Positions 14,298 through 38,617 of a stretch of DNA of 64,000 bases are shown here, piece after piece. Source of the stretch: Acidimicrobiales bacterium (GTDB lineage Bacteria > Actinomycetota > Acidimicrobiia > Acidimicrobiales > QHCF01); contig JAVKSQ010000005.1 in the NCBI GenBank assembly GCA_039583615.1, forward strand, positions 1,004 to 65,003. The letters are read 5' to 3'. Below the pieces are notes generated by a model, which was not told the origin of the DNA, made no database searches, and saw only the letters and a list, made by a program, of their open reading frames with translations. Position numbers and translations under genes: made by a program. Each line of letters opens with the position of its first letter. Within the stretch, counting starts at the first letter, position 1.

Positions 14298-15995
14298 TCA
14301 GTAGGCGCCGCGGCCGCGGACAACCGCCGCCATGGTCTTGGCCAGGATCACGAAGTCCAGCCCGAGCGACCAGTTCTCGACGTAGTACAGGTCCAGGCGC
14401 ACGGCATCCAGCCAGGCGAGCTCGCAGCGCCCGCTCACCTGCCACAGGCCGGTGAGACCGGGCCGGACGAGGAGGCGCCGACGGGTGTCGTCGTCGTAGC
14501 TCTCGACTTCACCGGGCAGGGGCGGACGGGGTCCGACCATGGACATGTGACCGCTCACCACGTGCCACAGCTGGGGGAGCTCGTCGAGCGAGAAGCGCCG
14601 CAGCCACCGCCCCACCGGCGTGACTCGGGGGTCCCGCCGGATCTTGAACAGGGGACCGTCGTGCTCGTTGAGGTGGCGGATGGTGGCCAGCTCGGCATCG
14701 GCCCCGGCCGCCATGGTGCGGAACTTCCACATGACGAACGGCCGCCCGGCCCGCCCCACCCGACACTGGCGGAACAGGACCGGCCCCGGACTGCTCAGCT
14801 TCACGGCCAGCGCCACGAGGGCCAGTACCGGTGCCAGCAGCACGAGGAGCACGCTGGCGGTCAGACGTTCGATCACGTGCTTGGCCACTCGGTCAGGGCC
14901 GCCGAAGCGCGGCTCCTCCACGTGCAACAGGGGCAGGCCGCCTACCGGTCGGATACCGATCCTCGGGCCGGCCACTCCGGTGACGCCCGGCGCCACGATC
15001 AGGTCCACGCCGGTGCGCTCCAGGCGCGCTGCCAGGCGGCGGATGGCTCCCAGCCCCAGCACGGCGCCGTCGGCCACCACCACCGCGTCGGCCTCACCGG
15101 CCAGGACCCACTGGATGATCTCGTCGCGCTGGGTCACCACGGGGACCGGCTCCCCGTCCACGTCGACCTGGGCGCCCGAGGGGGCTCCGGTGCAGGCTCC
15201 CACCACTGACAGACCGCCGTGCGGGGCCCGGCGCAGGTGGCGCACCAGCTCCTCGACGTGGCTCGCCGACCCGATGAGGACCGCCCGCTGCACGCACTTG
15301 CCGCGGGCCCGCTCGGCGTGCAGCCATCGCCGGGCTCCCCAGTGGGCGAAGAAGGTCACCGCCAGCGCCAAGGGGCCGACCAGGCCCACGAACTCCCGGG
15401 AGACGTTGACGTGGGACAAGAAGGCGAGCACCGCCATGGCCCCCACGAAGCGCACGGAGGCGTCGAGGATGCGCCGGTACTCCTCCGTGCCGGCACCGAG
15501 CGTCCGGGAGTCGTAGACGCCGCTGGCCAACAGGGTGAGGATCCACAGCGGGGCCAGGAGGGCCGAGAGGAGCGGGTAGGCGATAGAGGTGCCCACCACG
15601 TGGGTGTCGGCGGCATTGGCAGTGCCGAAGCGGACGAACTCGGCCAGCAGGCCGCTGCCGGCCAGCACGATGGCATCGGCCACCACCAGAGCGGCGACAT
15701 AGGGTCGCCGCCACCGACCGGCGGATCGGGTGGCCACCGGCCGCAGCCGGGGCCGGCGGCTGGCGGGGAGGCCGACCTCGGCTACCGGGGCACCGATCGG
15801 TCCAGCCAGCTCGGCGATGGCCGGTCCTCCATAGGCGCTGAGGGCAGAGGCGCTGAGGGCAGAGGCGCTGAGGGCAGAGGCGCTCAGGGGAGAGGCGCTC
15901 AGGGCAGAGGCGCTCAGGGCAGAGCCGACCCCGCCCAGGAGCGTCCCCTCTTGCCCGGGACCATCCCTGCCAACCGCACCGAGATCGGCTGCCAT
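14298..15995 (-). CDS. Polyprenyl-phosphate sugar phosphotransferase (WbaP/exopolysaccharide priming enzyme family)
   Basis: The C-terminal domain carries VLFRQCRVGRAGRPFVMWKFRTM, DELPQLWHVVSGHMSMVGPRP and RPGLTGLWQVSGR, and there are N-terminal TM segments. The start is placed at the ATG (complement of 15993-15995, MAADLGAV...). The remainder of track ORF 14298..17000 is antisense to the TylF-like gene. Confidence 0.85.
   Translation of the reverse strand: MAADLGAVGRDGPGQEGTLLGGVGSALSASALSASPLSASALSASALSASALSAYGGPAIAELAGPIGAPVAEVGLPASRRPRLRPVATRSAGRWRRPYVAALVVADAIVLAGSGLLAEFVRFGTANAADTHVVGTSIAYPLLSALLAPLWILTLLASGVYDSRTLGAGTEEYRRILDASVRFVGAMAVLAFLSHVNVSREFVGLVGPLALAVTFFAHWGARRWLHAERARGKCVQRAVLIGSASHVEELVRHLRRAPHGGLSVVGACTGAPSGAQVDVDGEPVPVVTQRDEIIQWVLAGEADAVVVADGAVLGLGAIRRLAARLERTGVDLIVAPGVTGVAGPRIGIRPVGGLPLLHVEEPRFGGPDRVAKHVIERLTASVLLVLLAPVLALVALAVKLSSPGPVLFRQCRVGRAGRPFVMWKFRTMAAGADAELATIRHLNEHDGPLFKIRRDPRVTPVGRWLRRFSLDELPQLWHVVSGHMSMVGPRPPLPGEVESYDDDTRRRLLVRPGLTGLWQVSGRCELAWLDAVRLDLYYVENWSLGLDFVILAKTMAAVVRGRGAY
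15835..15924. repeat. 15-bp tandem repeat x6 (gcgctSagggSagag), in frame ((ALSAS)n) in the N-terminus of the priming transferase
   Basis: Read directly: six contiguous units with 1-2 substitutions. Confidence 0.95.
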
Positions 15996-16166
15996 ACCCA
16001 GCTTCCCTCCCCGTTCGAGCCTGCGGTAGGCTAGCCCGGTAGCTGAGCCGGTGCACGGTTGGATTGTCGAGCGCCAGGAGCGGGCAGCTCCTGAGGCGTC
16101 GTGGGTTTCATCGTCGGCCGGTCGGGCGGACGGTATGTCTCGCCCGGGCCGGAGAGGGAGGGCTCG

Positions 16167-17006
16167 ATGGAGACGCTGGACAGGCCAGCTGCCGAGCTCT
16201 ACCTGGACCTGCTCAAGAGGTGCCTCACCCGGGAGCTGCTCGCAGAGTGCTATCACCCCCTCCGCACGGGCCGTCCCCTGACCTGGAAGCGCCTGGCGTA
16301 CCGCCTGCCCGAGCAGCTCCTTGCCCGGTACAAGCTGCAATTGGTCCGCCGAGCCCAGCCAGATCCCGCCGTCCGGGACGAGGGCCGTGACTGGCCGTCC
16401 TCGGCCGAGACGATGATCGGGCGCCGCCGGCTGGACAACTTGCAGTACTGCGTCATCCAGGCCCTGACCAGCGAGGTGCCCGGCGATCTCATCGAGACCG
16501 GCGTGTGGAGGGGCGGAGCGTCGATCTTCATGCGGGCCGTCCTGAAGGCGCTGGGCGACACCGATCGAAGGGTCTGGCTGGCTGATTCGTTTCGGGGCCT
16601 GCCTCCGCCGGACCCTGCCCGCTATCCGGCCGACGCTGGTGACCTGCTCTGGCGCTACGACGACCTGGCCATACCCCTGGAGGAGGTGAAGTCCAACTTT
16701 TCCCGGTACGGCCTGCTCGACGACCAGGTTCGTTTCCTGGAGGGCTGGTTCGACGAGACCCTGCCGGCGGCCCCCGTCGACCGCCTGTGCGTGCTGCGCC
16801 TCGACGGCGACATGTACCAGTCCACCATGGTGGCTCTGTCTGCCCTCTATCCCAAGCTGTCGGTGGAGGGGTTCGTCATCATCGACGACTTCGGTGCCGT
16901 TCCGGCCTGCCGGGCCGCAGTCGAGGACTATCGCCGCCAGCACGACATCTCGGAGGAGATAGTGCCGATCGACTGGACGGGAGTGTTCTGGCGCCGGCAA
17001 AGGTGA
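16167..17006 (+). CDS. TylF/MycF-family (macrocin-O-methyltransferase-like) sugar O-methyltransferase
   Basis: Strings PGDLIETGVWRGGASIFMRAVL, ADSFRGLP and LRLDGDMYQSTMVALSALYPKLSVGGF-like support the call. The ATG at 16167 (METLDRPAAELYLDLLKRCLT) is preceded by GGAGAGGGAGGG. Confidence 0.85.
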   Translation: METLDRPAAELYLDLLKRCLTRELLAECYHPLRTGRPLTWKRLAYRLPEQLLARYKLQLVRRAQPDPAVRDEGRDWPSSAETMIGRRRLDNLQYCVIQALTSEVPGDLIETGVWRGGASIFMRAVLKALGDTDRRVWLADSFRGLPPPDPARYPADAGDLLWRYDDLAIPLEEVKSNFSRYGLLDDQVRFLEGWFDETLPAAPVDRLCVLRLDGDMYQSTMVALSALYPKLSVEGFVIIDDFGAVPACRAAVEDYRRQHDISEEIVPIDWTGVFWRRQR

Positions 17007-17125: not shown

Positions 17126-18652
17126 GTGTGGTGTCGCAGGCCTCGCCATGAAGGGGGGCCGGCTGACCCGGGGCCTCTAGCCAGCACCCTGGCTGAGCCG
17201 GTGACGGCTCCTGCCGGAGGCCTGGGGACGGCGGAGATACGCCGCCGAGCTACCCGAGGCGCAGCCGTCCTGGGGGCACGCATGGGGATCGTCAAGGTCC
17301 TCAGCCTGGCTGCCAACGTGGTCCTGGCCAGGCTCCTCACTCCGCGGGACTTCGGCCTTGTCGCCTTTGGTGCCTCCCTGGTGACCATCGCCAGGCTGCT
17401 GGCCGATGGGGGGATCGGCCTCGCTCTCATCCTGGGTCCGAGCGAACCGGAGCGCCGCGACCTGGCGGCGCTGCTGGGGTTCCAGCTGGTCGGCTCGACA
17501 ACGATCGTGGGGGCGGTGGCGCTGGTGGCTCTGCCCTTCGGCGAGGCCGGTCGCGTCACCTCGCTGATCGCCCTCTCCATCCCGCTGGCGGTCTGGGGCA
17601 GTCCTGGGGCGATCATCCTCGAACGCCAGCTGTCATACCGCACGATCGCCTCGGTGGAAGTCATCGGAGTGGTGACCTACCTGGGCTGCGCCACCGCGTC
17701 GGTGGCTCTCGGAGCTGGCGTCTGGGGCCTGGCCAGCGCCATGGCCCTCGGCCCTGCTGTTCAGAGCCTCGCCACCGTCCTCCTGGTGCCGGCGGGCCGG
17801 GTCCGGCCGCAGCTGGCTTGGGCGCGGGTGCGCCGGCTGCTGGGCTTCGGCACCCGGTTCCAGGCTGCCGGCCTGGTCGACCTGGCCTACCAGCAGGGAG
17901 TCAACGTGGGCACAGCGTCCCTGGTCGGCATCCCGAACCTCGGGAGATGGACCTTTGTGACCAACCTGATGCAGGTGCCCCTTGATCTGTTGACCATATT
18001 CGTCCGGGTGTCCTTTCCCTCGATAGCCAGGCTGATGGACGCTGGCCAGGATCCAGCTGGCCGGCTCGAGGAGTTCATGAGGATCGTGGCGGTGAGCTGG
18101 GGCATCCTGATCGCCGGGATCGTGGGCACGGCGCCGGCATCCATCGATGTGATCTTCGGAACCTCATGGCATCCTGCGATCGCCGTGCTGCCCTGGGTCG
18201 GAGCTGCCTACACGCTGAGCGGTCCGATGGGAGTGGTCCTGGTCGGCTACCTCTACGCCCGGGGCCAAGCGGGCACCATCCTGCGCATCAAGATCCTCGA
18301 TACCGTGGTCGGGCTGGCGGCGGCGATGGCCCTTCTTCCCATCTTCGGCATCACCGCTCTCGGCATTGGCATGGTGGTGCAGGTCCTGGCTCAGATGTTC
18401 CTCTATCGAGGGGCCATTCGTCGCTGGGCTCGTGTCCGGGTCTTGCTGGCGATCCTTCCACAGGCCGGTGCCACTGCCCTTGCTGCCGGGGCAGGCTGGT
18501 ACACGGCTTGGGAGCTGGGGCCCCATCCCCTTGCCCTCGCCGGCTCGGCGCTGGCCACCGGAGCTGTCTACAGCGGGTGCACCGCGCTGGTCAGTCGGAC
18601 GGTCCTCAGGGAGACTCTCAGCCTTCTAAGAGCCGGGCTCGGCGCCAGATAG
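17126..18652 (+). CDS. Polysaccharide flippase (Wzx/PST family, MOP superfamily)
   Basis: A multi-TM protein with an N-terminal string GAAVLGARMGIVKVLSLAANVVLARLLTPRDFGLVAF typical of the family. The start is uncertain (an in-frame GTG at 17201 is possible). Confidence 0.75.
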   Translation: MWCRRPRHEGGPADPGPLASTLAEPVTAPAGGLGTAEIRRRATRGAAVLGARMGIVKVLSLAANVVLARLLTPRDFGLVAFGASLVTIARLLADGGIGLALILGPSEPERRDLAALLGFQLVGSTTIVGAVALVALPFGEAGRVTSLIALSIPLAVWGSPGAIILERQLSYRTIASVEVIGVVTYLGCATASVALGAGVWGLASAMALGPAVQSLATVLLVPAGRVRPQLAWARVRRLLGFGTRFQAAGLVDLAYQQGVNVGTASLVGIPNLGRWTFVTNLMQVPLDLLTIFVRVSFPSIARLMDAGQDPAGRLEEFMRIVAVSWGILIAGIVGTAPASIDVIFGTSWHPAIAVLPWVGAAYTLSGPMGVVLVGYLYARGQAGTILRIKILDTVVGLAAAMALLPIFGITALGIGMVVQVLAQMFLYRGAIRRWARVRVLLAILPQAGATALAAGAGWYTAWELGPHPLALAGSALATGAVYSGCTALVSRTVLRETLSLLRAGLGAR

Positions 18653-18707: not shown

Positions 18708-19676
18708 TCATCTCGTCAATACGAGATCGGTAAAGGAGATGCCGTCGTAGACGTCGGCCAGCTGGATCAGGTCGCTGGCCGGCAGGCTCACTGCCGATCC
18801 CGACCGCTCCGACGCCCTCACGTCGATGACCAGCCGGTAGTTCTCCGCCACGAGCTGGCAAAGCCTGTCCAACCCGTTGGACCTCCGCAGCCCATAGGGC
18901 CAGAACTCGATGACGGCGGGGATAGGGCGCTCATGCCTCAGGATTGACGATGCCCCCGCCAGCACCTGGGCCTCGTGGCCCTGGACGTCGACCCACAGCA
19001 AGCCGACGGCGGCCGGATCGATACGGCCGTCCTCGACCAGGCTGTCGAGGCGCAGAGTGGCTACCGGGATCGTGTCCCGGGCGTCCTCGCCGAAGCAGCC
19101 GGCCTGGCTGGACGATCCGAGAGATCTCACCCGGTGGTCTCCTGTGCTCTCGCCCGAGAGCTCGAGCAGCTCCTCCCCGTCATGGTCGGAGATGGCCACC
19201 GGATAGGTGTCGACGACATCGTCGAGACCGTTCAAGATCAGGTTGCAGCGAAGTATGGCGTAGTTGGCCGGCGCCGGCTCGAACGCGGCGGCCCTGGCCG
19301 CGCCATAATTCGATATGGCCGGAATTGTCGAGGTGCCCAGGTTGGCGCCAACGTCAAGAAAGGTCCTGGCCTCGAGAAAGCCATGCATACCGGGTAGATC
19401 GTCGATCAGGTTCATGGTCGTAGCCATGAGGTCACGTTCGTAATCGCCAAAGACGAATATGTGCCTACTGACGTGGTCCGTAGTGGTAACAAGGTACCGA
19501 CCATCGCCCCTTTCGACGACTATCATAGGACCCAGTCTCGCCAGGGCGGAGAATCCGTAATGTCGGACTAGGCGGGTAGGACTTCGGTCGTAATAGCGGA
19601 AGTTGCCCCAAAGACGGCGACTGCGAGCAACGAGTGAATTCGGGGCACGACCCACAACGCCAAGCCGTTTGGTCAC
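18708..19676 (-). CDS. FkbM-family methyltransferase
   Basis: Strings FLDVGANLGTSTIP, AAFEPAPANYAILRCNL and WVDVQGHEAQVLAGA support the call. Confidence 0.8.
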   Translation of the reverse strand: MTKRLGVVGRAPNSLVARSRRLWGNFRYYDRSPTRLVRHYGFSALARLGPMIVVERGDGRYLVTTTDHVSRHIFVFGDYERDLMATTMNLIDDLPGMHGFLEARTFLDVGANLGTSTIPAISNYGAARAAAFEPAPANYAILRCNLILNGLDDVVDTYPVAISDHDGEELLELSGESTGDHRVRSLGSSSQAGCFGEDARDTIPVATLRLDSLVEDGRIDPAAVGLLWVDVQGHEAQVLAGASSILRHERPIPAVIEFWPYGLRRSNGLDRLCQLVAENYRLVIDVRASERSGSAVSLPASDLIQLADVYDGISFTDLVLTR

Positions 19677-19776: not shown

Positions 19777-20715
19777 ATGGGCTGCCTTGGTATGACGGCG
19801 ACACCCACGACGGGTCGGCCGCCACCAGGGAAAGACATGCTCGCCACTCGGGAACTACCAGCCCGCTACCAGGAGTGGAATCGCCGCTGGCTCGCCCCCC
19901 AGGGCCCCGATGGCCGTACCTGCCTGCCCATCTCGCGCCGGGTGAGTCGCCGACGAGCCCGAGCTCTGGGCCCCTTCGTCTGGCAGCCCAACTCCTCCAC
20001 CCGAGCGTTCGAGTACCCGTGGGCATTCGACACCACCGACGTCGGCCACGGCCAGCGTGTCCTCGAAGTCGGCGGAGGCTTGTCCGGCCTTCAGTTCGTG
20101 CTGGCCATGGCGGGAGCCGAGGTGGTCAACGTCGACCCGTTTGTCTCCTACGGTGGCGACGAGGGCTATAGCCAGGAAGTTGTCTCTTTCCATCGTCGTT
20201 TAAATCGGCTGTGGAATACGTCGGTGTCACTGCGGCCAACCACAATCGGCAACGCCGACCTTCCGTCAGAATTCTTCGACATCGTGTATTGCATCTCTAC
20301 GATCGAGCACCTTGAACGGGAGGCGATACTAGCTATATTGCAGCACGTCAGGCGGGTCCTGGTGCCGGGTGGCCTCTTCGTACTGACGGTGGATCTATTC
20401 TTGAACCTGACTCCATTCACAGATAGGACCCACAACCACTGGGGGACGAATATCTCGGTAGCCTGGTTGCTGGAGAGGTCAGGATTGGAGCTCGAAGCCG
20501 GTGACCCCAGCCAGCTTACAGGCTTTCCAGACTTTGATCCAAGCTCCATCCTGGCCAACTTGGAGCGATTTGCAATAGGGACAGCCTATCCCCAACTGGC
20601 TCAGGCCGCAGTATTGAGGAAAGCTCGAGCAGCGCCGCGACGGCCGGCGGACCTCGGTTACCACGACAGCTCGACCGGCGCCACCGGGTTGGCCCGTTCC
20701 CCCACCACAGTGTAG
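19777..20715 (+). CDS. Class I SAM-dependent methyltransferase
   Basis: Strings VLEVGGGLSGLQFVLAMAGAEVVNVDP, FDIVYCISTIEHL and LVPGGLFVLTVDL support the call. The first ATG after the divergent FkbM start was chosen (19777; alternatives are 19792 or about 19837). The 3' end overlaps the convergent gene by 58 nt. Confidence 0.65.
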   Translation: MGCLGMTATPTTGRPPPGKDMLATRELPARYQEWNRRWLAPQGPDGRTCLPISRRVSRRRARALGPFVWQPNSSTRAFEYPWAFDTTDVGHGQRVLEVGGGLSGLQFVLAMAGAEVVNVDPFVSYGGDEGYSQEVVSFHRRLNRLWNTSVSLRPTTIGNADLPSEFFDIVYCISTIEHLEREAILAILQHVRRVLVPGGLFVLTVDLFLNLTPFTDRTHNHWGTNISVAWLLERSGLELEAGDPSQLTGFPDFDPSSILANLERFAIGTAYPQLAQAAVLRKARAAPRRPADLGYHDSSTGATGLARSPTTV

Positions 20716-22858: not shown

Positions 22859-23386
22859 TCAAGGCAGGGGGCGGGCGATGACGGACCTCAGCCGACTCGG
22901 GGAGCCAGCCACGACCGTATAGGGCTCAACGTCGTCGAGGACCAAAGAGCCCACCCCCACGACCGCATGCTCGCCTATTGTGCAGGGGCCGACGACAGTG
23001 ACGTTGGTCGACAGCCAGGCGCCCTCGCCCACTACGACATCGCGGCCTTCCCTCGGCACTGCCACCTGGCGTTGCGGCCCGAACTTGGTGAAGTCGTGAG
23101 TCCCGGTGAGAATGACCACGTTGTGACCGAAGAACGCATAGGGCCCCACGGTAATGGTCCCCGATGACAGGTTGAAGAGCGTGTTGTTCACCACCGAGGT
23201 GGGGTCGAGGCGCAGCCTGCTCGGATCTCCGTAGACCATCGCCCTCGTAAGAAGCGGGTCCACTCCCTGCTCGACAAGTGAGTGGCTGGCCAGGGCCCGC
23301 TCGACCAGGCGGGTCACGGAGCGGCCGATGAGAGGCCAGGCCATCCGGGCGAGCCTGTCGAGAGCTCGTGACATGGTATCTATCAT
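22859..23386 (-). CDS. Left-handed beta-helix (hexapeptide-repeat) acyl/acetyltransferase
   Basis: Hexapeptide strings ITVGPYAFFGHNVVILTG, VVVGEGAWLSTNVTVVGPCTIGEHAVVGVGSLV. The start is ATG at complement of 23384-23386 (MIDTMSRAL), 1 nt after the upstream stop. The track's longer N-terminus overlaps the GT2 gene. Confidence 0.8.
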   Translation of the reverse strand: MIDTMSRALDRLARMAWPLIGRSVTRLVERALASHSLVEQGVDPLLTRAMVYGDPSRLRLDPTSVVNNTLFNLSSGTITVGPYAFFGHNVVILTGTHDFTKFGPQRQVAVPREGRDVVVGEGAWLSTNVTVVGPCTIGEHAVVGVGSLVLDDVEPYTVVAGSPSRLRSVIARPLP

Positions 23387-23387
23387 C

Positions 23388-24329: not shown

Positions 24330-24393
24330 GAGGGATCTGGCTGACCTAACCCGGAGCTGGGACCGGCTCGGACCAGACTGTACCATGGTATAA

Positions 24394-25143: not shown

Positions 25144-25149
25144 CATCCT

Positions 25150-29239: not shown

Positions 29240-29266
29240 CCTGGATCTGCGCTAACGGAAGGAGCC

Positions 29267-30307: not shown

Positions 30308-30438
30308 TCTCAGCCGGTCTTCCCCGAGGATGCCGGCCAACCCGCCGCCGCCAGGCCGAGGGGTCTGGACGCCGGCCGGTCAGGTCGACGCCTCGCCCAC
30401 CGTGGCCGCCTCGGTGGGTGCATTAGGCTGCCGCGAAG

Positions 30439-32310
30439 ATGTGCGGGATAGTGGCCGTGACCGGGCGGGACGTCAGGCCTGGGGCGTCCAAGCTGCTGGA
30501 AGCCCTCCGCCACCGGGGACCAGACGACTCTGGCCTGGTGGACTTCGGACCGGTTGCTCTGGCCGCCAGTCGCCTGGCCATTCTCGACCCGGCTCCCCGG
30601 GCCGGCCAACCCATGGGCTCGGCCGGGCGCCATCTGGCCTACAACGGCGAGCTGTACAACTTCGCCGAGCTGCGGGCCGAGCTGGCGGCCGCCGGCATCT
30701 CCTTCACCACCACCGGCGACACCGAGGTCGTGCTCCAGGCCGTCGTCCGCTGGGGCCAAGGTGCGTGCCAGCGGTTCCGCGGCATGTTCGCCCTCATCGT
30801 CTTCGACGAGACGACCGGAGAGCTGTGGGCCGCCCGCGACCGCTACGGGATCAAGCCCCTCTACTGGCGAACGCGACCGGGCGGGGGGATCGCCCTGGCC
30901 TCGGAGGCGACACCGCTGGCGGCCATGGGGGCAGCGGGGACCAGCGTGGCCGGCCTCGCCGATTTCCTGCGCTTCGGTGCGCCTGTCACCTCAGGCATCT
31001 TCGACGGCGTGAGCGAGCTGGAGCCGGGCACGGTCACGACCTGGAGACCCGATGGGTCCAGGCGGGCGGAGCCGTACCGCCAGGAAGCTGCCCACTGCCC
31101 TGGCGCTTGGCTGGAGCCCGCCGACCTGCTGCACCAGAGCGTGACCGAGCACCTGGTCGCTGACAGGCCAGTGGCCCTCTTCCTCAGCGGGGGCTTCGAC
31201 TCAGGGGCGCTGGCGGCCCAGTCCCACCAGGCCGCTCGGCCACCGACCGCCCTATCCCTGGCCTATCCGGGCAACGGGGCAGATCTGGCCCGAGCCCGGG
31301 CCACGGCGGCGCACTTCGACCTGGATCACCGGGTGGTCCACCTGGAGACTGGTGACCTGGCTGCTCAGATCGCCGCATTCCTGGCGGCCATGGACCAACC
31401 CACTGTTGACGGGCTCAACACGTTCCTGGTGGCGGGAATCGCAGCCGACGAGGGGTTCCCGGTCGCCCTGAGTGGCCTGGGCGGCGACGAGGTCCTGGGT
31501 GGCTACGGGTACTACCGCCGGCTGGCGCTGTTCAACCTGGCGGCCAGGGGCTGGCGCCGGCTGCCGTCGCCGCTGCGCCGGGCGGGAATCGTGGTCGGCT
31601 CCCGTCACTACGCCCGCCCGCCCGGCCAGCTGGTCGCCATGCTGGAGGCCCGAACGTTGCCGGACCTGCACCAGTCATGGAGGAGCCTGTTCACCGCCGC
31701 CGAGGTGACCCGTCTCACCGGGACCGCGCTGCCCGCCAGTGACCCAGGGCAGGTCGACCCGGTCTCGTCGCCGGGCCTCCAGCTCCACCGACTCGATCTG
31801 GAGACCTATCTGCGGCCGGTCCTGCTCCGGGACACCGACGCCTACTCGATGGCCCATGGGGTCGAGGTCCGCGTCCCTTTCCTCGACCACCGGTTGGTGA
31901 GCGCGGCCAACCAGGGCTCCGCCTCCTTCACCAAGACCGACCTGGCCCGCCAGCTCGGAGACGCCTATCTTGGCGGGCTCGCTCGCCGGCCCAAGCTGGC
32001 CTTCTCGTTGCCGTGGGGACGCTGGCTGAGGGTGGCTCGGGAGGTGGCGGGCGAGGTGTTGGCCGATGTCGATCCCTGGCGGGGGCTGGTCGATCCAGCC
32101 CCGGCCCGGGCAGTCGTCGAGCGGCGTGGCCCCGAGGGGCGCAACAGCCCGTTGCGGGCCTGGGCACTGATAGCGCTGTCGTGCTGGCTGGCCCGCCAGC
32201 CCCAGGAGCGCTCGATGCCGGCCCGGCGGAGCCTCTCTACGCCCCCGCCGGCGAGCAGCCCACCGATCGGCACCCGCGGGTCCGGGCGGAACTGGGGATG
32301 GCCGAGCTGA
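30439..32310 (+). CDS. asnB: Asparagine synthase (glutamine-hydrolysing)-like amidotransferase
   Basis: MCGIVAV provides the N-terminal Cys2 nucleophile. Other strings are HRGPDDSG, YNGELYNF and the LSGGFDSG PP-loop. Confidence 0.88.
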   Translation: MCGIVAVTGRDVRPGASKLLEALRHRGPDDSGLVDFGPVALAASRLAILDPAPRAGQPMGSAGRHLAYNGELYNFAELRAELAAAGISFTTTGDTEVVLQAVVRWGQGACQRFRGMFALIVFDETTGELWAARDRYGIKPLYWRTRPGGGIALASEATPLAAMGAAGTSVAGLADFLRFGAPVTSGIFDGVSELEPGTVTTWRPDGSRRAEPYRQEAAHCPGAWLEPADLLHQSVTEHLVADRPVALFLSGGFDSGALAAQSHQAARPPTALSLAYPGNGADLARARATAAHFDLDHRVVHLETGDLAAQIAAFLAAMDQPTVDGLNTFLVAGIAADEGFPVALSGLGGDEVLGGYGYYRRLALFNLAARGWRRLPSPLRRAGIVVGSRHYARPPGQLVAMLEARTLPDLHQSWRSLFTAAEVTRLTGTALPASDPGQVDPVSSPGLQLHRLDLETYLRPVLLRDTDAYSMAHGVEVRVPFLDHRLVSAANQGSASFTKTDLARQLGDAYLGGLARRPKLAFSLPWGRWLRVAREVAGEVLADVDPWRGLVDPAPARAVVERRGPEGRNSPLRAWALIALSCWLARQPQERSMPARRSLSTPPPASSPPIGTRGSGRNWGWPS

Positions 32311-33458
32311 GGGCAGGTCGGATACGGGTGGTCTACCTCGATCATTGCGCCGCCCTCTCGGGGGCGGAGCTGGCCTTGCTCAGGCTTCTCCCCGCTCTCG
32401 ACGGCGTAGAGGCCCACGTGATCCTGGCCGAGGACGGGCCTCTGGCTGACAGGTTGGCGAGGGCGGGAATACCCGTCGAGCTCCTCCCGATGGGCCGGCG
32501 GGCTCGCAGCCTGAGCCGTGAGCAGGTGGGGCTGCGAGCATCGGCGGGAGCCGGGGCCGTCGTAGCCGTTGGCTACGCCGCCCACCTGGCCCGGCGCCTC
32601 CGCCAGCTGGAGCCGGACCTGGTCCACACCAACTCCCTCAAGGCCGCTGTATATGGTGGCCTGGCGGCGAGGCTGGTTGGCCTGCCGGTCGTCTGGCACC
32701 TCCGTGATCGGATCGCCCCCGACTACCTGCCCAGGCCAGCCGTGGCCCTGGTCAAAGCCCTGGCCCAGGTCCTGCCCAGCGCAGTGGTGGCCAACTCGAG
32801 GGCCAGCCTCTGCGCCCTGGGGCGTCACCGGGGTCCTCATGCGGTCATCACCAGCCCGGTGGTCCCACCGGCTCGCCGCCACACCGCCTCGGAGGGCCCG
32901 GCAGTGATCGCCATGCTGGGCCGCCTGGCCCCCTGGAAGGGCCAGGACCTGTTCCTGCGAGCCTTCGCCTCCGCCTTCCCCGGTGGGTCGGAGCGGGCGG
33001 TCGTGGTCGGCTCGGCGCTGTTCGGCGAGAGCGATTATGAGGCTTACCTTCGCCAGCTGGTCAAGGATCTGGCGGTGGAGCACCGGGTGGTCTTCGCCGG
33101 CTTCCGGGAGGACGTCGCCGATTGCCTGGCCGGCATCGACATCCTGGTCCACGCCTCGGTGGTGCCGGAGCCGTTGGGCCAAGCGGTGCTGGAGGGCATG
33201 GCGAGCGGCTTGGCAGTGGTCGCCGCTCGGGCTGGGGGACCGGCGGAGATGGTGGCCGACGGCGTGGACGGGCTCCTCTACCCGCCGGGCGACGTGGACG
33301 CCCTGGCCGGTATCCTGCGCCAGCTGGCGGCCGATGCCGAGCTGCGCCGCCGACTGGGTGGGGCGGCCCGCCACCGCTCGGCTGCCTGGGCACCACCGGT
33401 GGTCGCCCGCCAGACTCTGGCGTTCTACCGCCAAGTGCTCGTCCAGCGCTCTGTCTGA
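32298..33458 (+). CDS. Glycosyltransferase, GT4-like
   Basis: The start is ATG 32298 (MAELRAGRIRVVYLDHCAALSGAE), overlapping the asnB end by 13 nt. The C-terminal string LVHASVVPEPLGQAVLEGMASGLAVVAARAGGPAEMV supports the family call. The upstream part of track ORF 32013.. is out of frame within asnB. Confidence 0.85.
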   Translation: MAELRAGRIRVVYLDHCAALSGAELALLRLLPALDGVEAHVILAEDGPLADRLARAGIPVELLPMGRRARSLSREQVGLRASAGAGAVVAVGYAAHLARRLRQLEPDLVHTNSLKAAVYGGLAARLVGLPVVWHLRDRIAPDYLPRPAVALVKALAQVLPSAVVANSRASLCALGRHRGPHAVITSPVVPPARRHTASEGPAVIAMLGRLAPWKGQDLFLRAFASAFPGGSERAVVVGSALFGESDYEAYLRQLVKDLAVEHRVVFAGFREDVADCLAGIDILVHASVVPEPLGQAVLEGMASGLAVVAARAGGPAEMVADGVDGLLYPPGDVDALAGILRQLAADAELRRRLGGAARHRSAAWAPPVVARQTLAFYRQVLVQRSV

Positions 33459-33494
33459 ACGAATGACGGGGCACAGATACACTCCTGAATCGAC

Positions 33495-34028
33495 ATGGAA
33501 ATGGCGGGATTGGAGCGAATGGCGGGAAAAGCCAGCTGGTGCCACAAGCTGATATCGATGGATCAGCTTGACGCCCAACGCCAGAGTTGGCGCCGGGAAG
33601 GAAGGGTGGTGGTCTGGACCAACGGATGCTTCGACCTGCTCCATGTCGGGCACCTGCAGACCCTGGACGCAGCCCGCCGCCTCGGGGACATACTGGTGGT
33701 CGGGGTCAACGACGATGCGTCAGCTCGCAGCCTCAAGGGCAGCGGCCGGCCGTTCGTGCCCGCCGCCGAGCGGGCCGCCCTGATCGCGGCTTTGGAGGTG
33801 GTGACCAGGGCCGTCGTCTTCTCCGGCCTCACCCCCGAGCATGTCCTCAGCCGGCTCCAGCCCGAGGTCCACTGCAAGGGGGCCGACTACGCCCCTCCTC
33901 AGGGCAAGCCCATCCCTGAGATGGCGACCGTGGAGGCCTACGGAGGACGGGTGGAGTTCCTGCCCCTGGTGGTCGCCCGCTCGACCTCGTCCCTGACCAG
34001 CCGGATCCGGGCCAACCGGTATGACTGA
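33495..34028 (+). CDS. hldC: D-glycero-beta-D-manno-heptose-1-phosphate adenylyltransferase (RfaE/HldE domain II type, stand-alone)
   Basis: The cytidylyltransferase motif VVVWTNGCFDLLHVGHLQTLDAARRLGDILVVGVNDD is present, plus SRI near the C-terminus. Several alternative ATG starts lie between 33495 and 33558. Confidence 0.85.
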   Translation: MEMAGLERMAGKASWCHKLISMDQLDAQRQSWRREGRVVVWTNGCFDLLHVGHLQTLDAARRLGDILVVGVNDDASARSLKGSGRPFVPAAERAALIAALEVVTRAVVFSGLTPEHVLSRLQPEVHCKGADYAPPQGKPIPEMATVEAYGGRVEFLPLVVARSTSSLTSRIRANRYD

Positions 34029-35145
34029 TCGGGGCATCGAGTCGACGGTGTCGCGCTTGTCTGGCACCGCCGTGTTGATAGTGGGCGACCTCATGCTGGA
34101 CGAGTACATCTGGGGCGATGTCCGGCGCATCTCTCCCGAGGCGCCCGTACCGGTCGTCGAGGTGGCGGGCCTGACCGCTGTCCCCGGAGGGGCGGCCAAC
34201 GCGGCGGCCGGGATCGTGGCCCTGGGTGGCCAGGCCCGGCTGGGCGGGGTGGTCGGTGGGGACGCCTCGGGGCAGCGACTGAGGGCTCGATTGCGCGAGC
34301 GGGGTATCGCCGTCGACGGCATCTGGTCGGACGAGAGGCGCCCGACGACGACCAAGACGCGCATCGTGGCTGGTTCCCAGCAAGTGGTCAGAGCCGACCG
34401 GGAGACCTGCGCCCCCCTGGCCGAGAGCATCGAGGACGCCCTGGGTGACTGGGCCCTGGGCCAGCTGGGCGGGGCTGGTGCGGTGATCCTCTCCGACTAC
34501 GCCAAAGGGGCCGTCTCAGCTCGGTTGGCCCAGACGCTGATCGAGGCTGCCTCGGCTCGCCGCCTGCCGGTGGTGGTCGACACCAAGGGGGTCGATTATG
34601 CCAGGTACCGGGGGGCGACCGTGCTCACCCCGAACCTCGAAGAGGCGGCACGGGCGTCCGGGCTGGTCATCGCCGACGAGGAGGACCTCTGCCGCGCCGC
34701 CAAGGTCCTGCTCGGGAACCTGGGGGGCGCCGCCTTGCTCGTCACTCGCGGCGCCCAGGGCATGACGCTGTTCACGGCCGATGGCCCGGGAGCCGACCCC
34801 GCCCACATCCAGGCGACCGCCCGCAACGTCTTCGATGTCACCGGGGCGGGGGACACGGTGGTCGCCAGCCTGGCCCTGGCCCTGGCCAGTGGCGCCAGCC
34901 TTCCCGACGCCGCCCACCTGGCCAGCGCGGCGGCGGGCGTGGTGGTTGGCAAGGTGGGAACGGCCACGGTGTCGCTCGCCGAGCTGGCGGCCGCCGGCTC
35001 ACCAGGTGGCGAGGGTCTGGCTCCGCCGGCCCCGAGCGGCGCCGGGGACCCGCCAGGGAGGATCAGTCGCGCCTCGGATGGTCGGCCCGGAACAGCAAGA
35101 AGTGCCCGAAGCGCTCCAGGCGCCGTCGGCGCGTCTCCGGCTTGA
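34021..35145 (+). CDS. hldA: D-glycero-beta-D-manno-heptose-7-phosphate kinase (RfaE/HldE domain I type, pfkB family, stand-alone)
   Basis: Strings VLIVGDLMLDEYIWGDVRRISPEAPVPVV and DVTGAGDTVVASLALALASG support the call. The ATGA start overlaps the preceding stop. The Pro/Gly-rich tail overlaps the convergent gene by 83 nt. Confidence 0.85.
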   Translation: MTDRGIESTVSRLSGTAVLIVGDLMLDEYIWGDVRRISPEAPVPVVEVAGLTAVPGGAANAAAGIVALGGQARLGGVVGGDASGQRLRARLRERGIAVDGIWSDERRPTTTKTRIVAGSQQVVRADRETCAPLAESIEDALGDWALGQLGGAGAVILSDYAKGAVSARLAQTLIEAASARRLPVVVDTKGVDYARYRGATVLTPNLEEAARASGLVIADEEDLCRAAKVLLGNLGGAALLVTRGAQGMTLFTADGPGADPAHIQATARNVFDVTGAGDTVVASLALALASGASLPDAAHLASAAAGVVVGKVGTATVSLAELAAAGSPGGEGLAPPAPSGAGDPPGRISRASDGRPGTARSARSAPGAVGASPA

Positions 35146-35896
35146 GCCGCTTCCAGACCCGGCCTCGCAGGGGCTCCGGCAGCGGGACCAGGTCGACGTC
35201 CAGGCCGGTAATCGACGTCTGGGCGCTGGTGAAGAAGGTCAGCAGCAGGTCCCGCCACTGGTCAGCCGGATAGAAGCGGGCGGTGAAGCCGTCGGTGCAG
35301 CGCCACAGGGCCTCGTCCACCGAATGAGACCTCCAGTTGCGCGACACCAGCCAATCGCGGGCCAGGGCGATGGCCAGACGGGTGGAGTCCCGGTGGTAGA
35401 CCATCCCGGCAAACGCGCCGCCGTGGCGGAGCCAGCGGCTCACGTTGCGCACGATGCGCCCGGTATGGGCCGAGTGATGGACCACTCCCCAGCTCCAGAC
35501 GACGTCGAAGCGATCGTGGAAGTCGGCACGGTCGTCCTCGGCGTCCCACTCCTCCAGCGCCCCCGTCAGCCCCTTGAGCTCGAAGCGCCGGCGGGCCAGC
35601 TCGACCGCCGGGCGGGAGATGTCGACTGCGCTGAGCAGCGCCCCGCGGCGGGCCAGCAGCTCGGCGTGCTGGCCCGATCCCAGGCCGACCTCGAGGACCT
35701 CCTTGCCCTCTAGGGAGATGTCCCCCAACAGCCGGTCCAGCGGTGATCGCCCGTCCAGGAAGTGGCGATGCTGGTCGGCGCTACGACGGTCCTGGTCGTC
35801 GAACCAGGCCAGCGAGCCGACGGGCAGTCCGGAGGCGCTGCGCCAGTCATAGGTCATCGGAGTGTGCTCCCACCAGGCGCGGTTGGCTGCCTGCAC
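35063..35896 (-). CDS. Class I SAM-dependent methyltransferase
   Basis: Strings KEVLEVGLGSGQHAELLARRGALLSAVDIS, FDVVWSWGVVHH and LRHGGAFAGMVY support the call. Confidence 0.7.
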   Translation of the reverse strand: MQAANRAWWEHTPMTYDWRSASGLPVGSLAWFDDQDRRSADQHRHFLDGRSPLDRLLGDISLEGKEVLEVGLGSGQHAELLARRGALLSAVDISRPAVELARRRFELKGLTGALEEWDAEDDRADFHDRFDVVWSWGVVHHSAHTGRIVRNVSRWLRHGGAFAGMVYHRDSTRLAIALARDWLVSRNWRSHSVDEALWRCTDGFTARFYPADQWRDLLLTFFTSAQTSITGLDVDLVPLPEPLRGRVWKRLKPETRRRRLERFGHFLLFRADHPRRD

Positions 35897-35955
35897 CGCC
35901 TCGAGCGGCTGATCGCCGAGGCGCTTGCCACCGTGTCTTCCCCCGGCCGGGTGCT

Positions 35956-37101
35956 TCAGCGGAGCACCCCTTCCAGGCGCCGCTCGACTCGATCCACTGC
36001 CGCCTTCCAGGTGTAGTCGTTCATGGCTCGGGCCCGGGCCCGGTCGCCAAGGGCTCGGGCGTAGCCGGGATGATCCAGCAGGCGCAGTGCCCCACGTCTG
36101 ATGTCTGGCAGGGAAAGGGGGTCCACCAGCAGTCCCGTCTCCTCGTGGACCACGGCATCGGGAACCCCGCCCGAGTTGCCAGCCAGCGAGGGTCGGCCGG
36201 CCAGCGCCGCCTCCAGGAAGGCGATTCCGAAGCCCTCGAACAGCGCCGGCCGCCGCGACTGCCGGGACAGCATCACGAAGGCCTGGCAGGCGTGCAGCAG
36301 GGCCGACTTGGTGGCCTCGTCGACCAGGTCGGCCATGAGCACCGCGTGGCCCACTCCGACCTGGTCGGCCAGTCGGCGCAAGCTTGCCTTGAGCTCTCCC
36401 TGACCGGCGATGACGTAGCGCAACCCGGGCCGGCGCGCCAGGAGCCTGGGCAGGGCGCGGATGAACATGTCCTGGCCCTTGTGCGCCTCGACCAGGCGGC
36501 TCACGGTCAGGAAGAAGGGTGCCACCGTGGCGGTCACCGGGTCGACCAGGCCCAGGCGACCGAGGATGGCGTCACTGTCGGCGGGAGCGATGGCGATGGC
36601 CGCCCCGTTGGCGGTGACCGCGATCCGCCCTGACGGCACCCCGCACCTGGCGACCTCCCGGGCCGTGAACCGACTGACGGCCATGACCAGATCCAGGCGA
36701 GGCCCCAGCGTCCGCATCAGCAGACGCGTCCTCGGCGCCCAGATCTCGCTGCCGTGCACCAGCGCCGCCCGGGGCGTGCCGCGAGCCGACACCATGGCGG
36801 CCGGCAACGCGTTGACATGACCAGCCAGCACGATGTCGGTCGGCTGACCTGCGGCCAGGCGCAGCATCTCGGTGAGCGCCGCCAACCGTGAGGCGTTCCA
36901 GCCCGACCGGGTCCTGAGCACCCGGAAGGCGGCGGCGCGGTCGTAGCGGCTGGCGCTCGGGTGGTGAGGAGCGATGACGGTGGTCGACCAACGCTGCGCC
37001 AGTCCGTGAGCTAGCTCGTGCATCACCGTCTCTATCCCGCCCACCGCCGGAGGAAAGGCGGGGGCCAGGACCAACAAGCGGGGTCGGTGGCGTGGTGTCA
37101 C
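35956..37101 (-). CDS. Glycosyltransferase, GT4-like
   Basis: Strings LLVLAPAFPPAVGGIE and FVMLSRQSRRPALFEGFGIAFLEAALAGRPSLAGNSGGVPDAV support the call. Confidence 0.85.
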   Translation of the reverse strand: MTPRHRPRLLVLAPAFPPAVGGIETVMHELAHGLAQRWSTTVIAPHHPSASRYDRAAAFRVLRTRSGWNASRLAALTEMLRLAAGQPTDIVLAGHVNALPAAMVSARGTPRAALVHGSEIWAPRTRLLMRTLGPRLDLVMAVSRFTAREVARCGVPSGRIAVTANGAAIAIAPADSDAILGRLGLVDPVTATVAPFFLTVSRLVEAHKGQDMFIRALPRLLARRPGLRYVIAGQGELKASLRRLADQVGVGHAVLMADLVDEATKSALLHACQAFVMLSRQSRRPALFEGFGIAFLEAALAGRPSLAGNSGGVPDAVVHEETGLLVDPLSLPDIRRGALRLLDHPGYARALGDRARARAMNDYTWKAAVDRVERRLEGVLR

Positions 37102-37105
37102 CGCG

Positions 37106-38617
37106 CTAGGAGGCCCTCACCACCAGGTTCTCTGCCAGGGCGTCGCCAGCCTCCGCCCTCGTGCGGCTGGCCAGCGCCAGACCGAGGGCGATCCACATGA
37201 AGAAGCCGCTGGCGCCGGTCAGGTCGTTGGCGAACACCAGGTAGACGAGCCCGGCGAGGCCCACCGCTCGACCGGTCGCCACCAGCGGATCTCCGGGTCG
37301 GGCCCCCGCGGTGGCGGCCACCCCCAGGACGGCGCCCAAGACGTAAAGGGCGGTGCCCAACCAGCCCAGCTCGTAGGGGACGGCCAGCAGCCCGCTGTCG
37401 AAGTTCCCCATACCGGTGACCTCGTGAGTGGCCGAGGCGAGCTTGGTGGCCGTCCCGGTGGAGCCTGTTCCATGACCCAGCGCATCATGCGCCACCATGG
37501 GGGTCTCCGCTTTGTAGAAGGCCACTCGGGCCGAGAAGCTGGTGTCCCGGGAGATGTCCCCCAGACCGACCGTCACGCTCCTTACTCGACTGGGCGCCTG
37601 GCTGCCGGCTGCCCGGGTGCCGCCTGGACCGATCGCCCCGTGCCCGGGCAGCAGGGCCAGGACCACGAACGGGAGCGCGACCGCCACTGCCATCGGGGCC
37701 AGCCGGGCCAGCCCAGCGCGCTGGGCGACCAGGAGGTAGACCAGCCCCACTGCCAGCACTATCCACCCCGCACGGATCCCGGATATGGCCAGGGCGGTCG
37801 CTCCCAGGGCCATGGTCGCGGTCAGGCCCATGGTCACCATGCCAAGGGCGTGGCGGCACTGGCTCACCACCAGCATCAGCACCGCCAGCACGAAGGCGAA
37901 CGGGGCGGGCGAGTTGAGGGTGCTGAACGGCCGGAAGTGCCCGGCGGTGATGGTCGGATACTCAGCCAGGCCGGAGTGCAGGGCCCAGTAGGCGTCCCAG
38001 CTGGGGAGCAGGAAGTACTGGATCAAGCCGTAGGCGCTGATGGTGACCACGGTGGCCAGGGCCAGGCCGGCGACGGTGCGGCGGTAGGCAGGAGCCACAC
38101 CCCCCTGCCAGGCCAGATGGGCCCCGACGAGGGGCGGGGCGACCCAGTCCGCCGCCCCGTAGACGGCGGCCAGGTGCGAGCCCCGGGCCAGCCCGACCAC
38201 CAGCCCCACCGCGATGCCGCAGCCCACCAGGACGAAGCCCCTGAGCCTCGGGTTGCCCGCCGCCCGGAGGTTGGAGAGGGTCGTCACCAGGCAGGCGGCG
38301 CTGGCCACCAGGGGTGCCAGGACCACCGCGCTGGTCGGGTCGTAGCCGGCCTGGTAGTCGCTCAGGCGGCGAACCTCGGGCGTGAGGACCCACAGCCACC
38401 ACACCAAGCCGAGGTAGGCGGTGGGCCGTGACCGGACCAGGGCCAGGGCCCCGACTGCCGAGGCGGCGGGAAACGCGATCCGCAGCAGGCCGCCGTCACC
38501 GGCGGCCAGGGTGGCGGCCACCACCGCCACCAGCAGTCCGGCCACACCCGCCGGCAGGACCAGGGCGCGTCGCCCGGTGGGAGCGGTCGCCCGCTCGCCC
38601 CTCCTCGCCCGCGGCAC
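37106..38617 (-). CDS. O-antigen ligase/polymerase-like (Wzy/WaaL family) polytopic membrane protein
   Basis: A 503-aa, highly hydrophobic multi-TM protein with a large loop, lying 4 nt downstream of a GT gene at the edge of the glycan locus. The family call comes from architecture and context only. Confidence 0.65.
   Translation of the reverse strand: MPRARRGERATAPTGRRALVLPAGVAGLLVAVVAATLAAGDGGLLRIAFPAASAVGALALVRSRPTAYLGLVWWLWVLTPEVRRLSDYQAGYDPTSAVVLAPLVASAACLVTTLSNLRAAGNPRLRGFVLVGCGIAVGLVVGLARGSHLAAVYGAADWVAPPLVGAHLAWQGGVAPAYRRTVAGLALATVVTISAYGLIQYFLLPSWDAYWALHSGLAEYPTITAGHFRPFSTLNSPAPFAFVLAVLMLVVSQCRHALGMVTMGLTATMALGATALAISGIRAGWIVLAVGLVYLLVAQRAGLARLAPMAVAVALPFVVLALLPGHGAIGPGGTRAAGSQAPSRVRSVTVGLGDISRDTSFSARVAFYKAETPMVAHDALGHGTGSTGTATKLASATHEVTGMGNFDSGLLAVPYELGWLGTALYVLGAVLGVAATAGARPGDPLVATGRAVGLAGLVYLVFANDLTGASGFFMWIALGLALASRTRAEAGDALAENLVVRAS

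Follow-up and report, generated by a model that had tools for sequence, protein, structure and literature searches.

Characterized Wzx/Wzy-type polysaccharide loci usually contain none to two methyltransferase genes, and they typically combine a GC content lower than that of their flanks with mosaic, hypervariable gene content at a fixed chromosomal site. Here, we describe a locus at positions 14298-38617 of a 64,000-nucleotide stretch of DNA (the window) from an Acidimicrobiales bacterium (GenBank assembly GCA_039583615.1, contig JAVKSQ010000005.1), which shows both of the latter properties and in which nine of 22 genes encode predicted methyltransferases. Judging from its gene content, this is probably a single Wzx/Wzy-type locus for an undecaprenyl-phosphate-linked heteroglycan, situated in a variable island adjoining phoH and specifying several position-specific methylations per repeat unit. 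The machinery is already known, being that of a standard Wzx/Wzy-dependent locus; it is the extreme and diverse methyltransferase complement that sets the locus apart.

Several described systems share part of this gene content. Wzx/Wzy loci for O-antigen, capsule and exopolysaccharide, such as those for the WbaP-initiated O-antigen of Salmonella and for colanic acid in Escherichia coli, which uses WcaJ, have the same class of priming polyprenyl-phosphate glycosylphosphotransferase (PGT), a set of GT2 and GT4 glycosyltransferases, a flippase of the multidrug/oligosaccharidyl-lipid/polysaccharide (MOP) family, a Wzy_C protein and an acetyltransferase (PMC12004945). The window locus differs in having no Wzz/polysaccharide co-polymerase (PCP) or export genes nearby, and its product is not expected to be a lipopolysaccharide (LPS) O-antigen because the host is probably a monoderm actinobacterium. 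The protein O-glycosylation cluster of Tannerella forsythia (~25-27 kb) also encodes Wzx, several glycosyltransferases, multiple methyltransferases and an AsnB-like amidotransferase, and its product carries methylated sugars (PMC6120980). However, that cluster has three methyltransferases and a pseudaminic/legionaminic acid (Pse/Leg) sugar pathway and belongs to a member of the Bacteroidetes, whereas in the window locus nine methyltransferases are accompanied by a Wzy_C protein and by a PGT of its own. In Rhizobium etli CE3, several positions of a surface glycan are methylated, with 3-O-methyl-6-deoxytalose and a 2,3,4-tri-O-methylfucose cap, but in this case the glycan is the LPS O-antigen of a diderm bacterium (PMC4153317). 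The best-known precedent for dense methylation is actinobacterial: in the methylmannose polysaccharides (MMP) and methylglucose lipopolysaccharides (MGLP) of mycobacteria, most sugars are O-methylated, and the polymers are hence lipophilic (PMC9883506, PMC2674218). Unlike the predicted product of the window locus, these are cytoplasmic homopolymers made with one glycosyltransferase and one or two iterative methyltransferases, with no lipid-carrier PGT, Wzx or Wzy; their methylation density comes from repetition and not from many different enzymes. Literature searches on methyltransferase-rich Wzy loci, Acidimicrobiia envelope glycans and TylF in O-antigen loci yielded no close precedent, and found no published chemistry of Acidimicrobiia envelope glycans.

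Genes in the window, where GC content is ~72%, were called from third-position GC (GC3) and frame phase, and candidates were tested against Pfam and NCBIfam. The Pfam scan covered 50 open reading frames (ORFs) of the window, including all called locus genes and leaving aside ~10 short ORFs outside the locus. The locus was resolved into 22 genes in nine transcription units, which comprise one PGT, one Wzx, one Wzy_C protein, four GT4-like and two GT2 glycosyltransferases, a hexapeptide acyltransferase, an AsnB-type amidotransferase, the pair HldA and HldC, and nine methyltransferases. An earlier note on this DNA, made from the sequence alone, had proposed the same inventory; all of its family calls were reproduced, each at the same coordinates. 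Its gene count of about 23 becomes 22, and its eleven orientation flips are an overcount, since the strand changes eight times inside the locus, or ten times if both flanking genes are included. The methyltransferases are listed here, with identities given, where noted, to the homolog in L086, the closest relative.

16167-17006, plus strand: TylF/MycF/NovP-type sugar O-methyltransferase; Pfam TylF (PF05711) 344 bits, covering profile positions 2-264 of 264
18708-19676, minus strand: FkbM-family methyltransferase 1 (FkbM1); Methyltransf_21 (PF05050) 70.5 bits (cutoff 22.7), TIGR01444 92.9 (cutoff 37.7)
19837-20715, plus strand: class I S-adenosylmethionine (SAM) methyltransferase MT3; four Pfam methyltransferase families above their gathering scores
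20658-21503, minus strand: class I SAM methyltransferase MT4, of the YHTxELP...VLEVGTASG type; Methyltransf_23 35.7 bits (cutoff 27)
24403-25143, plus strand: class I SAM methyltransferase MT5, the weakest call; Methyltransf_11 27.3 bits (cutoff 21.2)
26356-27393, minus strand: class I SAM methyltransferase MT6, with an N-terminal Cys4 zinc ribbon; Methyltransf_23 114.9 bits
28526-29239, plus strand: class I SAM methyltransferase MT7; Methyltransf_25 66 bits, Methyltransf_11 61.7 bits; 68% identical to L086
29267-30307, plus strand: FkbM-family methyltransferase 2 (FkbM2); Methyltransf_21 57.9 bits, TIGR01444 76.3; 71% identical to L086
35063-35896, minus strand: class I SAM methyltransferase MT9; Methyltransf_25 58.7 bits, Methyltransf_11 57.6 bits; 82% identical to L086

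All nine predicted enzymes (one TylF-type, two FkbM-family, six class I) pass profile thresholds. Each of the six class I enzymes exceeds at least one Pfam gathering score, with MT3, MT6, MT7 and MT9 passing several models. The two lowest-scoring calls are backed by profile-profile comparison with hhalign, in which MT4 matched the MT6 family at 98.3% probability and the MT5 family profile matched it at 97.5%; moreover, all six members of the MT5 family match Methyltransf_11 and conserve the motifs RVEIGGG...HVD...LPF...HVLEH. The glycine-rich SAM-binding motif I is kept in all nine proteins and, judged against their homologs, none of the nine ORFs is truncated or interrupted. Three of the start sites deserve comment. 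The TylF-type ORF opens at 16101, with the likely start at ATG 16167 behind a Shine-Dalgarno-like GGAGAGGGAGGG; the start of MT3 at ATG 19837 was set by alignment with its homologs (89 representative clusters at E<=1e-30 among 1.84 billion proteins); and that of MT6 was set by an identical 345-aa database protein (P0011). Sequence searches against the Protein Data Bank (PDB) matched the TylF-type protein to MycF, NovP and 4cdz at E ~1e-75 over the whole catalytic domain; the same search gave no match for FkbM1 and nothing informative for MT4. The TylF-type protein thus resembles the TylF/MycF/NovP deoxysugar O-methyltransferases, but its gene lies in a lipid-linked glycan locus and not in a macrolide or aminocoumarin pathway. 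In an all-against-all BLAST comparison, FkbM1 and FkbM2 were 32% identical, and the next pair, MT4 and MT9, aligned with E = 1.7e-6 over 38 residues. The nine methyltransferases are thus too divergent to have arisen by recent duplication of one another.

MT6 is the class I enzyme for which a Cys4 ribbon had been noted, and the motif proved to be robust: C30xxC33...C62xxC65 is invariant across 25 homologs. The MT6 family (~350 aa) is widespread, with 725 matches at E<=1e-20 and invariant motifs at W267, P273 and H275, and no dedicated model for it was found in Pfam or NCBIfam. The AlphaFold2 (AF2) model of MT6 has a predicted local distance difference test (pLDDT) score of 90.9, and its top Foldseek matches are KijD1, TcaB9 and MtmC, dTDP-sugar C-3 methyltransferases to which it aligns over ~345 columns at ~17% identity and a template modeling (TM) score of ~0.45-0.52. 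In these enzymes, the class I SAM domain is preceded by a zinc-binding domain at the N terminus, and the domain architecture of MT6 agrees with theirs. The modeled resemblance suggests that MT6 may act on a nucleotide sugar and possibly form a C-methyl branch. In contrast to KijD1 and TcaB9, however, MT6 has no Pfam match to the N- and C-terminal domains PF08421 and PF08484, and there is no 4,6-dehydratase gene at the locus that would provide the 4-keto sugar substrate; the resemblance is no more than a lead. While the earlier note assumed O- or N-methylation throughout, C-methylation is also possible, given that the structural neighbors of MT6 methylate nucleotide sugars at C-3.

The methyltransferase load was compared with that of other loci using family hidden Markov models (HMMs) built from the window methyltransferases and iterated over fetched loci, with non-overlapping matches counted. 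These counts agree with precomputed Pfam annotation on five loci. The window locus has nine methyltransferases within 19.8 kb. The 67 loci compared with it, each 15 kb or longer, have five at most; they were anchored on methyltransferases and are a sample, not a global census. Among the 51 TylF-centered loci, all from species-representative genomes, one methyltransferase was counted in 23 loci, two in 18, three in six, four in three and five in a single locus; the TylF homologs came from a scan of genome contigs, are at most 68% identical, belong to many phyla and were used as comparators, not as orthologous loci. The 16 MT6-centered metagenome loci have one to four methyltransferase-like genes each, and related loci anchored on Wzy, MT6 or AsnB homologs have 0-4. 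The picture does not change with related loci anchored on genes other than methyltransferases, where the counts are four in L086, three each in L083, L085 and L167, two in L168 and none in L084. Two to four methyltransferases therefore appear to be usual for related loci and nine an outlier, in a sample of a few dozen loci. These data uphold the earlier claim of an exceptional methyltransferase load: the calls hold in profile searches, and the homologous loci do not have the same content. Additional evidence comes from the window itself. No methyltransferase gene was found in the core housekeeping stretches that flank the locus (~5.9-12.4 kb and 38.4-54.7 kb), which argues that enrichment in the locus is not due to chance; the other methyltransferase-like ORFs in the window occur only in putative islands at its two ends (at 459, 1391 and 57417).

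Gene context and conserved adjacency to glycosyltransferases, and only these, point to a carbohydrate as the methyl acceptor of the six class I enzymes. Most of the nine methyltransferase genes adjoin a glycosyltransferase gene, and several of these pairings recur in relatives. MT6 lies beside GT4b in the window, L083 and L085. MT5 lies beside GT2a in the window, L083 and L086, as read from gene order, and the two co-occur in L004, L009 and L025. In both the window and L086, MT9 is next to GT4d and MT7 is next to FkbM2. Since the nine enzymes represent separate lineages, most of them beside a glycosyltransferase in pairings that are conserved in relatives, several distinct position-specific methylations per repeat would be expected. 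The high methyltransferase load described earlier is borne out; the very heavily O- or N-methylated product that was proposed from it is a reasonable inference from the gene count.

Comparison with relatives suggests how so many methyltransferases came together. The closest relative is a Logan contig (L082/L086) in which PhoH is 96% and CNNM 91% identical to the window proteins, and a glycan locus occupies the same site adjoining phoH. This locus is collinear with the right side of the window locus at 68-82% identity (MT7, FkbM2, AsnB, GT4c, HldC, HldA, MT9, GT4d and Wzy), and it has no TylF, FkbM1, MT3, MT4 or MT6. The left side instead matches L085, a Joint Genome Institute (JGI) metagenome contig, at 47-72% identity across PGT, TylF, Wzx, MT4, GT4a, the hexapeptide transferase, GT2a, GT4b and MT6. 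For FkbM1 and MT3, both low in GC3, none of the related loci offers a counterpart. GC3 ranges from 0.66 to 0.91 in the locus, the lowest values being those of GT2a (0.66), MT3 (0.71), GT2b (0.75) and FkbM1 (0.76), as compared with 0.93-0.96 in the flanking housekeeping genes. Because the two halves match L085 and L086, and FkbM1 and MT3 are orphans of low GC3, the locus is best described as a mosaic of two locus types with extra acquisitions in a hypervariable island, as the earlier note had surmised from gene orientation. The high methyltransferase count probably arose by fusion of the two locus types, which have three to four methyltransferases each, together with the two orphan genes. Homologs of Wzy, AsnB and MT6 also occur in metagenome-assembled genomes (MAGs) labeled Acidimicrobiales, the source of L083 and L168, and the order of genes in the window resembles that usual in actinobacteria.

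Two further differences from the closest relative were observed. A 4.4-kb insert in L086 (13177-17318), between the homologs of GT4c and HldC, is made up of one NHL/lactonase-like and one TPR-like gene together with several small uncharacterized genes; its absence from the window implies that turnover by insertion and deletion is ongoing inside the island. Separately, the flanking housekeeping proteins PhoH and CNNM are 91-96% identical between the two, as compared with 68-82% for the collinear glycan genes (38686-41383 as against 28526-38617); YbeY, at 63%, is an outlier among the housekeeping proteins.

The genes for assembly of the glycan, along with one repeat, are listed next.

14298-15995, minus strand: priming PGT of the large WbaP/WcaJ-like type; Bac_transf 211 bits plus CoA_binding_3
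15833-15924, in the divergent PGT/TylF region: 15-nt tandem repeat, 6.1 copies of the unit AGGCGCTCAGGGCAG; Tandem Repeats Finder, 96% matches, score 156
17126-18652, plus strand: Wzx, a MOP-family flippase; Pfam Polysacc_synt_3 110 bits and Polysacc_synt 51.8 bits, both above the gathering score
21555-22808, minus strand: GT4-like (GT-B) glycosyltransferase a (GT4a); Glyco_trans_1_4 88.9 bits, Glycos_transf_1
23388-24329, minus strand: GT2 glycosyltransferase a (GT2a); Glycos_transf_2 41.2 bits, Glyco_tranf_2_3
25150-26349, plus strand: GT4-like glycosyltransferase b (GT4b); Glycos_transf_1 87.9 bits, Glyco_transf_4
27506-28516, plus strand: GT2 glycosyltransferase b (GT2b); Glycos_transf_2 98.2 bits; 50% identical to L083
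32298-33458, plus strand: GT4-like glycosyltransferase c (GT4c); Glycos_transf_1 112.6 bits, Glyco_transf_4
35956-37101, minus strand: GT4-like glycosyltransferase d (GT4d); Glycos_transf_1 100.5 bits, Glyco_transf_4 69.5 bits; 77% identical to L086
37106-38617, minus strand: Wzy_C-superfamily polytopic membrane protein, putative repeat-unit polymerase; Wzy_C 38.9 bits (cutoff 31.7)

The presence of one PGT, one Wzx and one Wzy_C protein argues that the locus encodes a single pathway. The PGT scores 411 bits against NCBIfam model TIGR03025 (cutoff 295.6) and is 56% identical to that of L085; Wzx is 47% identical to the Wzx proteins of both L085 and L086. Among the glycosyltransferases, GT2a is 48-55% identical to L083 and L085, with a probable start at ATG 24329 in an ORF that reaches 24572, and GT4c is 69% identical to L086 and 63% to L083, with a probable start at ATG 32298 in an ORF that opens at 32013. 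The homolog of MT4 in L085 is 54% identical to the window protein. The start of the PGT is uncertain; the two candidates are an ATG at ~15995, ahead of the tandem repeat in the direction of the gene, and a GTG at ~15.7 kb, beyond it. Use of the upstream start would make the 15-nt repeat an in-frame (SALSA)n N-terminal tail. Use of the downstream start would place the repeat in the promoter region shared by the PGT and TylF genes, and gain or loss of copies there could affect how strongly the priming enzyme is expressed.

For the Wzy_C protein, a search of 5.8 billion clusters found only ten homologs. Its domain is common to polymerases, ligases and O-oligosaccharyltransferases. Characterized WaaL ligases depend on an invariant histidine, and an alignment of the 11-member family of the Wzy_C protein has invariant arginines and no invariant histidine; this sequence pattern mildly favors a polymerase over a ligase or oligosaccharyltransferase.

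Four further genes have predicted roles in tailoring or in precursor supply.

22859-23386, minus strand: hexapeptide-repeat acyl(acetyl)transferase; Pfam Hexapep 33.1 bits; 72% identical to L085
30439-32310, plus strand: AsnB-type glutamine-hydrolyzing amidotransferase; Asn_synthase 176 bits plus GATase_7
33495-34028, plus strand: HldC-like nucleotidyltransferase, putative heptose-1-phosphate adenylyltransferase; CTP_transf_like 57.3 bits
34021-35145, plus strand: HldA-like PfkB kinase, putative D-glycero-beta-D-manno-heptose-7-phosphate kinase; PfkB 147 bits

The NCBIfam matches of the hexapeptide transferase are WcaF/WbbJ-like, every one of them below cutoff. Its likely start, ATG 23386, is two bases (one intervening base) past the GT2a stop codon, and given this spacing the two genes are probably translationally coupled. 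AsnB scores 311 bits against TIGR01536 (cutoff 267), begins with the catalytic N-terminus MCGI and is identical to a 623-aa database protein (P0131). The basis for the amidated glycan proposed earlier is this intact enzyme; no uronic-acid pathway gene lies nearby. Similarly, the proposed heptose is half supported: the HldA-like kinase passes the equivalog-domain model TIGR02198 (rfaE_dom_I) with 364 bits against a cutoff of 345, and the remaining evidence on heptose is taken up below.

Taken together, these genes lead to the following proposed pathway. By analogy with its family, the WbaP/WcaJ-like transferase would place a sugar-1-phosphate on the lipid carrier. The four GT-B and two GT-A glycosyltransferases would extend the unit to up to seven sugars, one of which may be a heptose supplied by HldA and HldC. 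Either the unit or its nucleotide-sugar precursors would be tailored on the cytoplasmic side of the membrane, where SAM is available, by the nine SAM methyltransferases, the acetyltransferase and the AsnB-type amidotransferase. Wzx would then flip the finished unit across the membrane, and the Wzy_C protein would polymerize it. The predicted product is an unusually methyl-rich and relatively hydrophobic surface glycan.

Several observations weigh against this reading. Gene count does not equal methyl count: the three methyltransferases of the experimentally dissected T. forsythia cluster add no more than two methyl groups between them (PMC6120980). The comparison of methyltransferase loads relied on a methyltransferase-anchored sample, and the HMM counts are lower bounds, since they missed the methyltransferase-domain ORF at 57417 that Pfam finds. 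For heptose supply, the best NCBIfam match of the HldC-like protein, TIGR02199 (rfaE_dom_II), scores 152 bits and is below the cutoff of 181.5; in addition, none of the 50 window ORFs matched the Pfam families SIS, HAD or Glyco_transf_9, and gmhA, gmhB and a GT9 heptosyltransferase were thus not found in the window. The AF2 model of the Wzy_C protein, with a pLDDT of 75, has the ligase WaaL (7tpg; TM 0.43/0.51) as its sole meaningful PDB neighbor. Lastly, the window yielded no Wzz/PCP chain-length regulator (for Wzz, by Pfam among the 50 ORFs), no LytR-CpsA-Psr (LCP) ligase and no gene for export. The related loci L084 and L167 carry a Wzz/bacterial tyrosine kinase (BY-kinase) gene beside homologous genes, and a Wzz/PCP or BY-kinase gene could lie elsewhere in the genome.

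The uncertain role of the Wzy_C protein raises the question of whether the product is polymerized at all. The locus could instead make a non-polymerized oligosaccharide for general O-glycosylation of proteins, such as those of an S-layer, with the Wzy_C protein acting as a PglL/WaaL-like transferase of the whole lipid-linked, methylated and amidated oligosaccharide, en bloc, to proteins, as in Tannerella/Bacteroidetes and in Neisseria. The breadth of the Wzy_C superfamily, the structural match to WaaL and the lack of a chain-length regulator in the window are all consistent with this scheme, as are the similar makeup of the T. forsythia cluster, in which Wzx, five glycosyltransferases, three methyltransferases and AsnB are found in 27 kb (PMC6120980), and the fact that the best NCBIfam matches of the window Wzx include an O-glycosylation flippase, albeit at a score far below cutoff. 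We nevertheless regard it as unlikely, since the Wzy_C family has no invariant histidine in its 11 members, the Wzz/BY-kinase genes of L084 and L167 are typical of polymerizing systems, and no candidate glycoprotein acceptor was identified. A more distant proposal is that the enzymes decorate a small molecule or glycolipid, in a pathway of the secondary-metabolite type, and not a glycan of the cell envelope. While antibiotic deoxysugar pathways are the best-known setting for enzymes of the TylF/MycF/NovP, FkbM and KijD1/TcaB9-like types, the locus contains no polyketide synthase (PKS), non-ribosomal peptide synthetase (NRPS), terpene or aglycone genes, it does contain a lipid-carrier PGT, Wzx and Wzy_C, and the homologous methyltransferases of relatives lie in glycan loci with the same machinery. 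Together, these data make decoration of a small molecule highly improbable.

A different type of objection accepts the glycan and questions its methylation. If the locus is a recent mosaic in which part of the methyltransferases are redundant, inactive or used alternatively, the glycan would be an ordinary one with few, possibly non-stoichiometric, methyl groups. The two halves of the locus match two locus types that each work with three to four methyltransferases, and the genes are spread over nine separate transcription units with eight strand flips. The low GC3 of the orphan genes FkbM1 and MT3 is consistent with recent acquisition, and the T. forsythia cluster provides a precedent for methyltransferases outnumbering methyl groups (PMC6120980). 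On the other hand, the nine ORFs have remained intact, full length and in possession of their SAM-binding motifs, the genes of the locus are tightly packed with no pseudogene remnants, and the nine proteins belong to different subfamilies and are not redundant paralogs. On balance, this explanation seems fairly unlikely, and a Wzx/Wzy-type heteroglycan with several methylations per repeat remains the probable product.

On the right, the locus is bordered by PhoH-YbeY-CNNM-Era, and on the left by a 596-aa ORF of no assigned family followed by TldD/PmbA. Inside the locus, ORFs in other frames or on the opposite strand at 24346-25593, 31965-33653 and 33720-34430 (all minus strand) were rejected for wrong GC3 phase and no Pfam match, as were those at 34781-35713, 35743-36633 and 23799-24131 (all plus strand). 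The 596-aa ORF (12488-14278, plus strand) lies directly upstream of the glycan locus, and has Pro/Gly-rich ends and a center that appears by eye to be helical or coiled-coil; tandem repeats of 15 nt (4.7 copies) and 36 nt (2.3 copies) are found in it at 12620-12761. It matched no Pfam or NCBIfam family and had no homologue in the related loci. On these grounds, and with no hydrophobic stretch visible by eye, it was rejected as a candidate chain-length regulator.

Two regions toward the ends of the window are also of note. At 1391-4353, a DNA-methylase-like gene with Pfam DNA-methylase domains (1391-2221) and a large serine recombinase (2687-4327; Resolvase, Recombinase and Zn_ribbon_recom), the latter abutting a tRNA-Ala gene (4280-4353, minus strand), look like the edge of an integrated mobile element. 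At 54974-60188, downstream of tRNA-Asn and tRNA-Met genes, GC content falls to 62-65%. This region encodes an MbnB/TglH/ChrH-family enzyme that modifies ribosomally synthesized and post-translationally modified peptides (RiPPs; 56624-57541), a 698-aa methyltransferase-domain protein (57417-59513) and a 2-oxoglutarate (2OG)-Fe(II) oxygenase (59514-60188), and is a candidate horizontally acquired RiPP-type cluster.

The locus shows a glycan island gaining tailoring genes by the fusion of two locus types at the conserved phoH site. If the methyltransferases are partly redundant, it is an ordinary, if ornate, polysaccharide cluster. If all nine enzymes act on the glycan, few bacterial surface polysaccharides would match the product in density and diversity of methylation, and the locus would provide a compact set of nine sugar methyltransferases that are diverse in sequence and probably regiospecific. 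Only a small number of sugar O-methyltransferases with regiospecific action have been characterized so far (PMC9275233). A bolder proposal, which we put forward tentatively and consider doubtful, is a surface heteropolysaccharide with a repeat of ~seven sugars, almost all of them methylated, at ~nine positions, possibly with a C-methyl branched sugar and a methylated heptose; such a polymer would be an extracellular, Wzy-polymerized counterpart of the mycobacterial polymethylated polysaccharides. If this is true, the Acidimicrobiales cell would have a hydrophobic, glycosidase-resistant coat. Methylated envelope glycans may in any case be a general trait of the group and not peculiar to one genome, with two to four methyltransferases of the FkbM, TylF or class I type in L083, L085, L086, L167 and L168 and none in L084, which is anchored on Wzy. 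Were the bolder proposal correct, methyl-rich envelopes would be a lineage trait, given that all related loci examined except L084 have two to four such genes, and the window locus would be its extreme.

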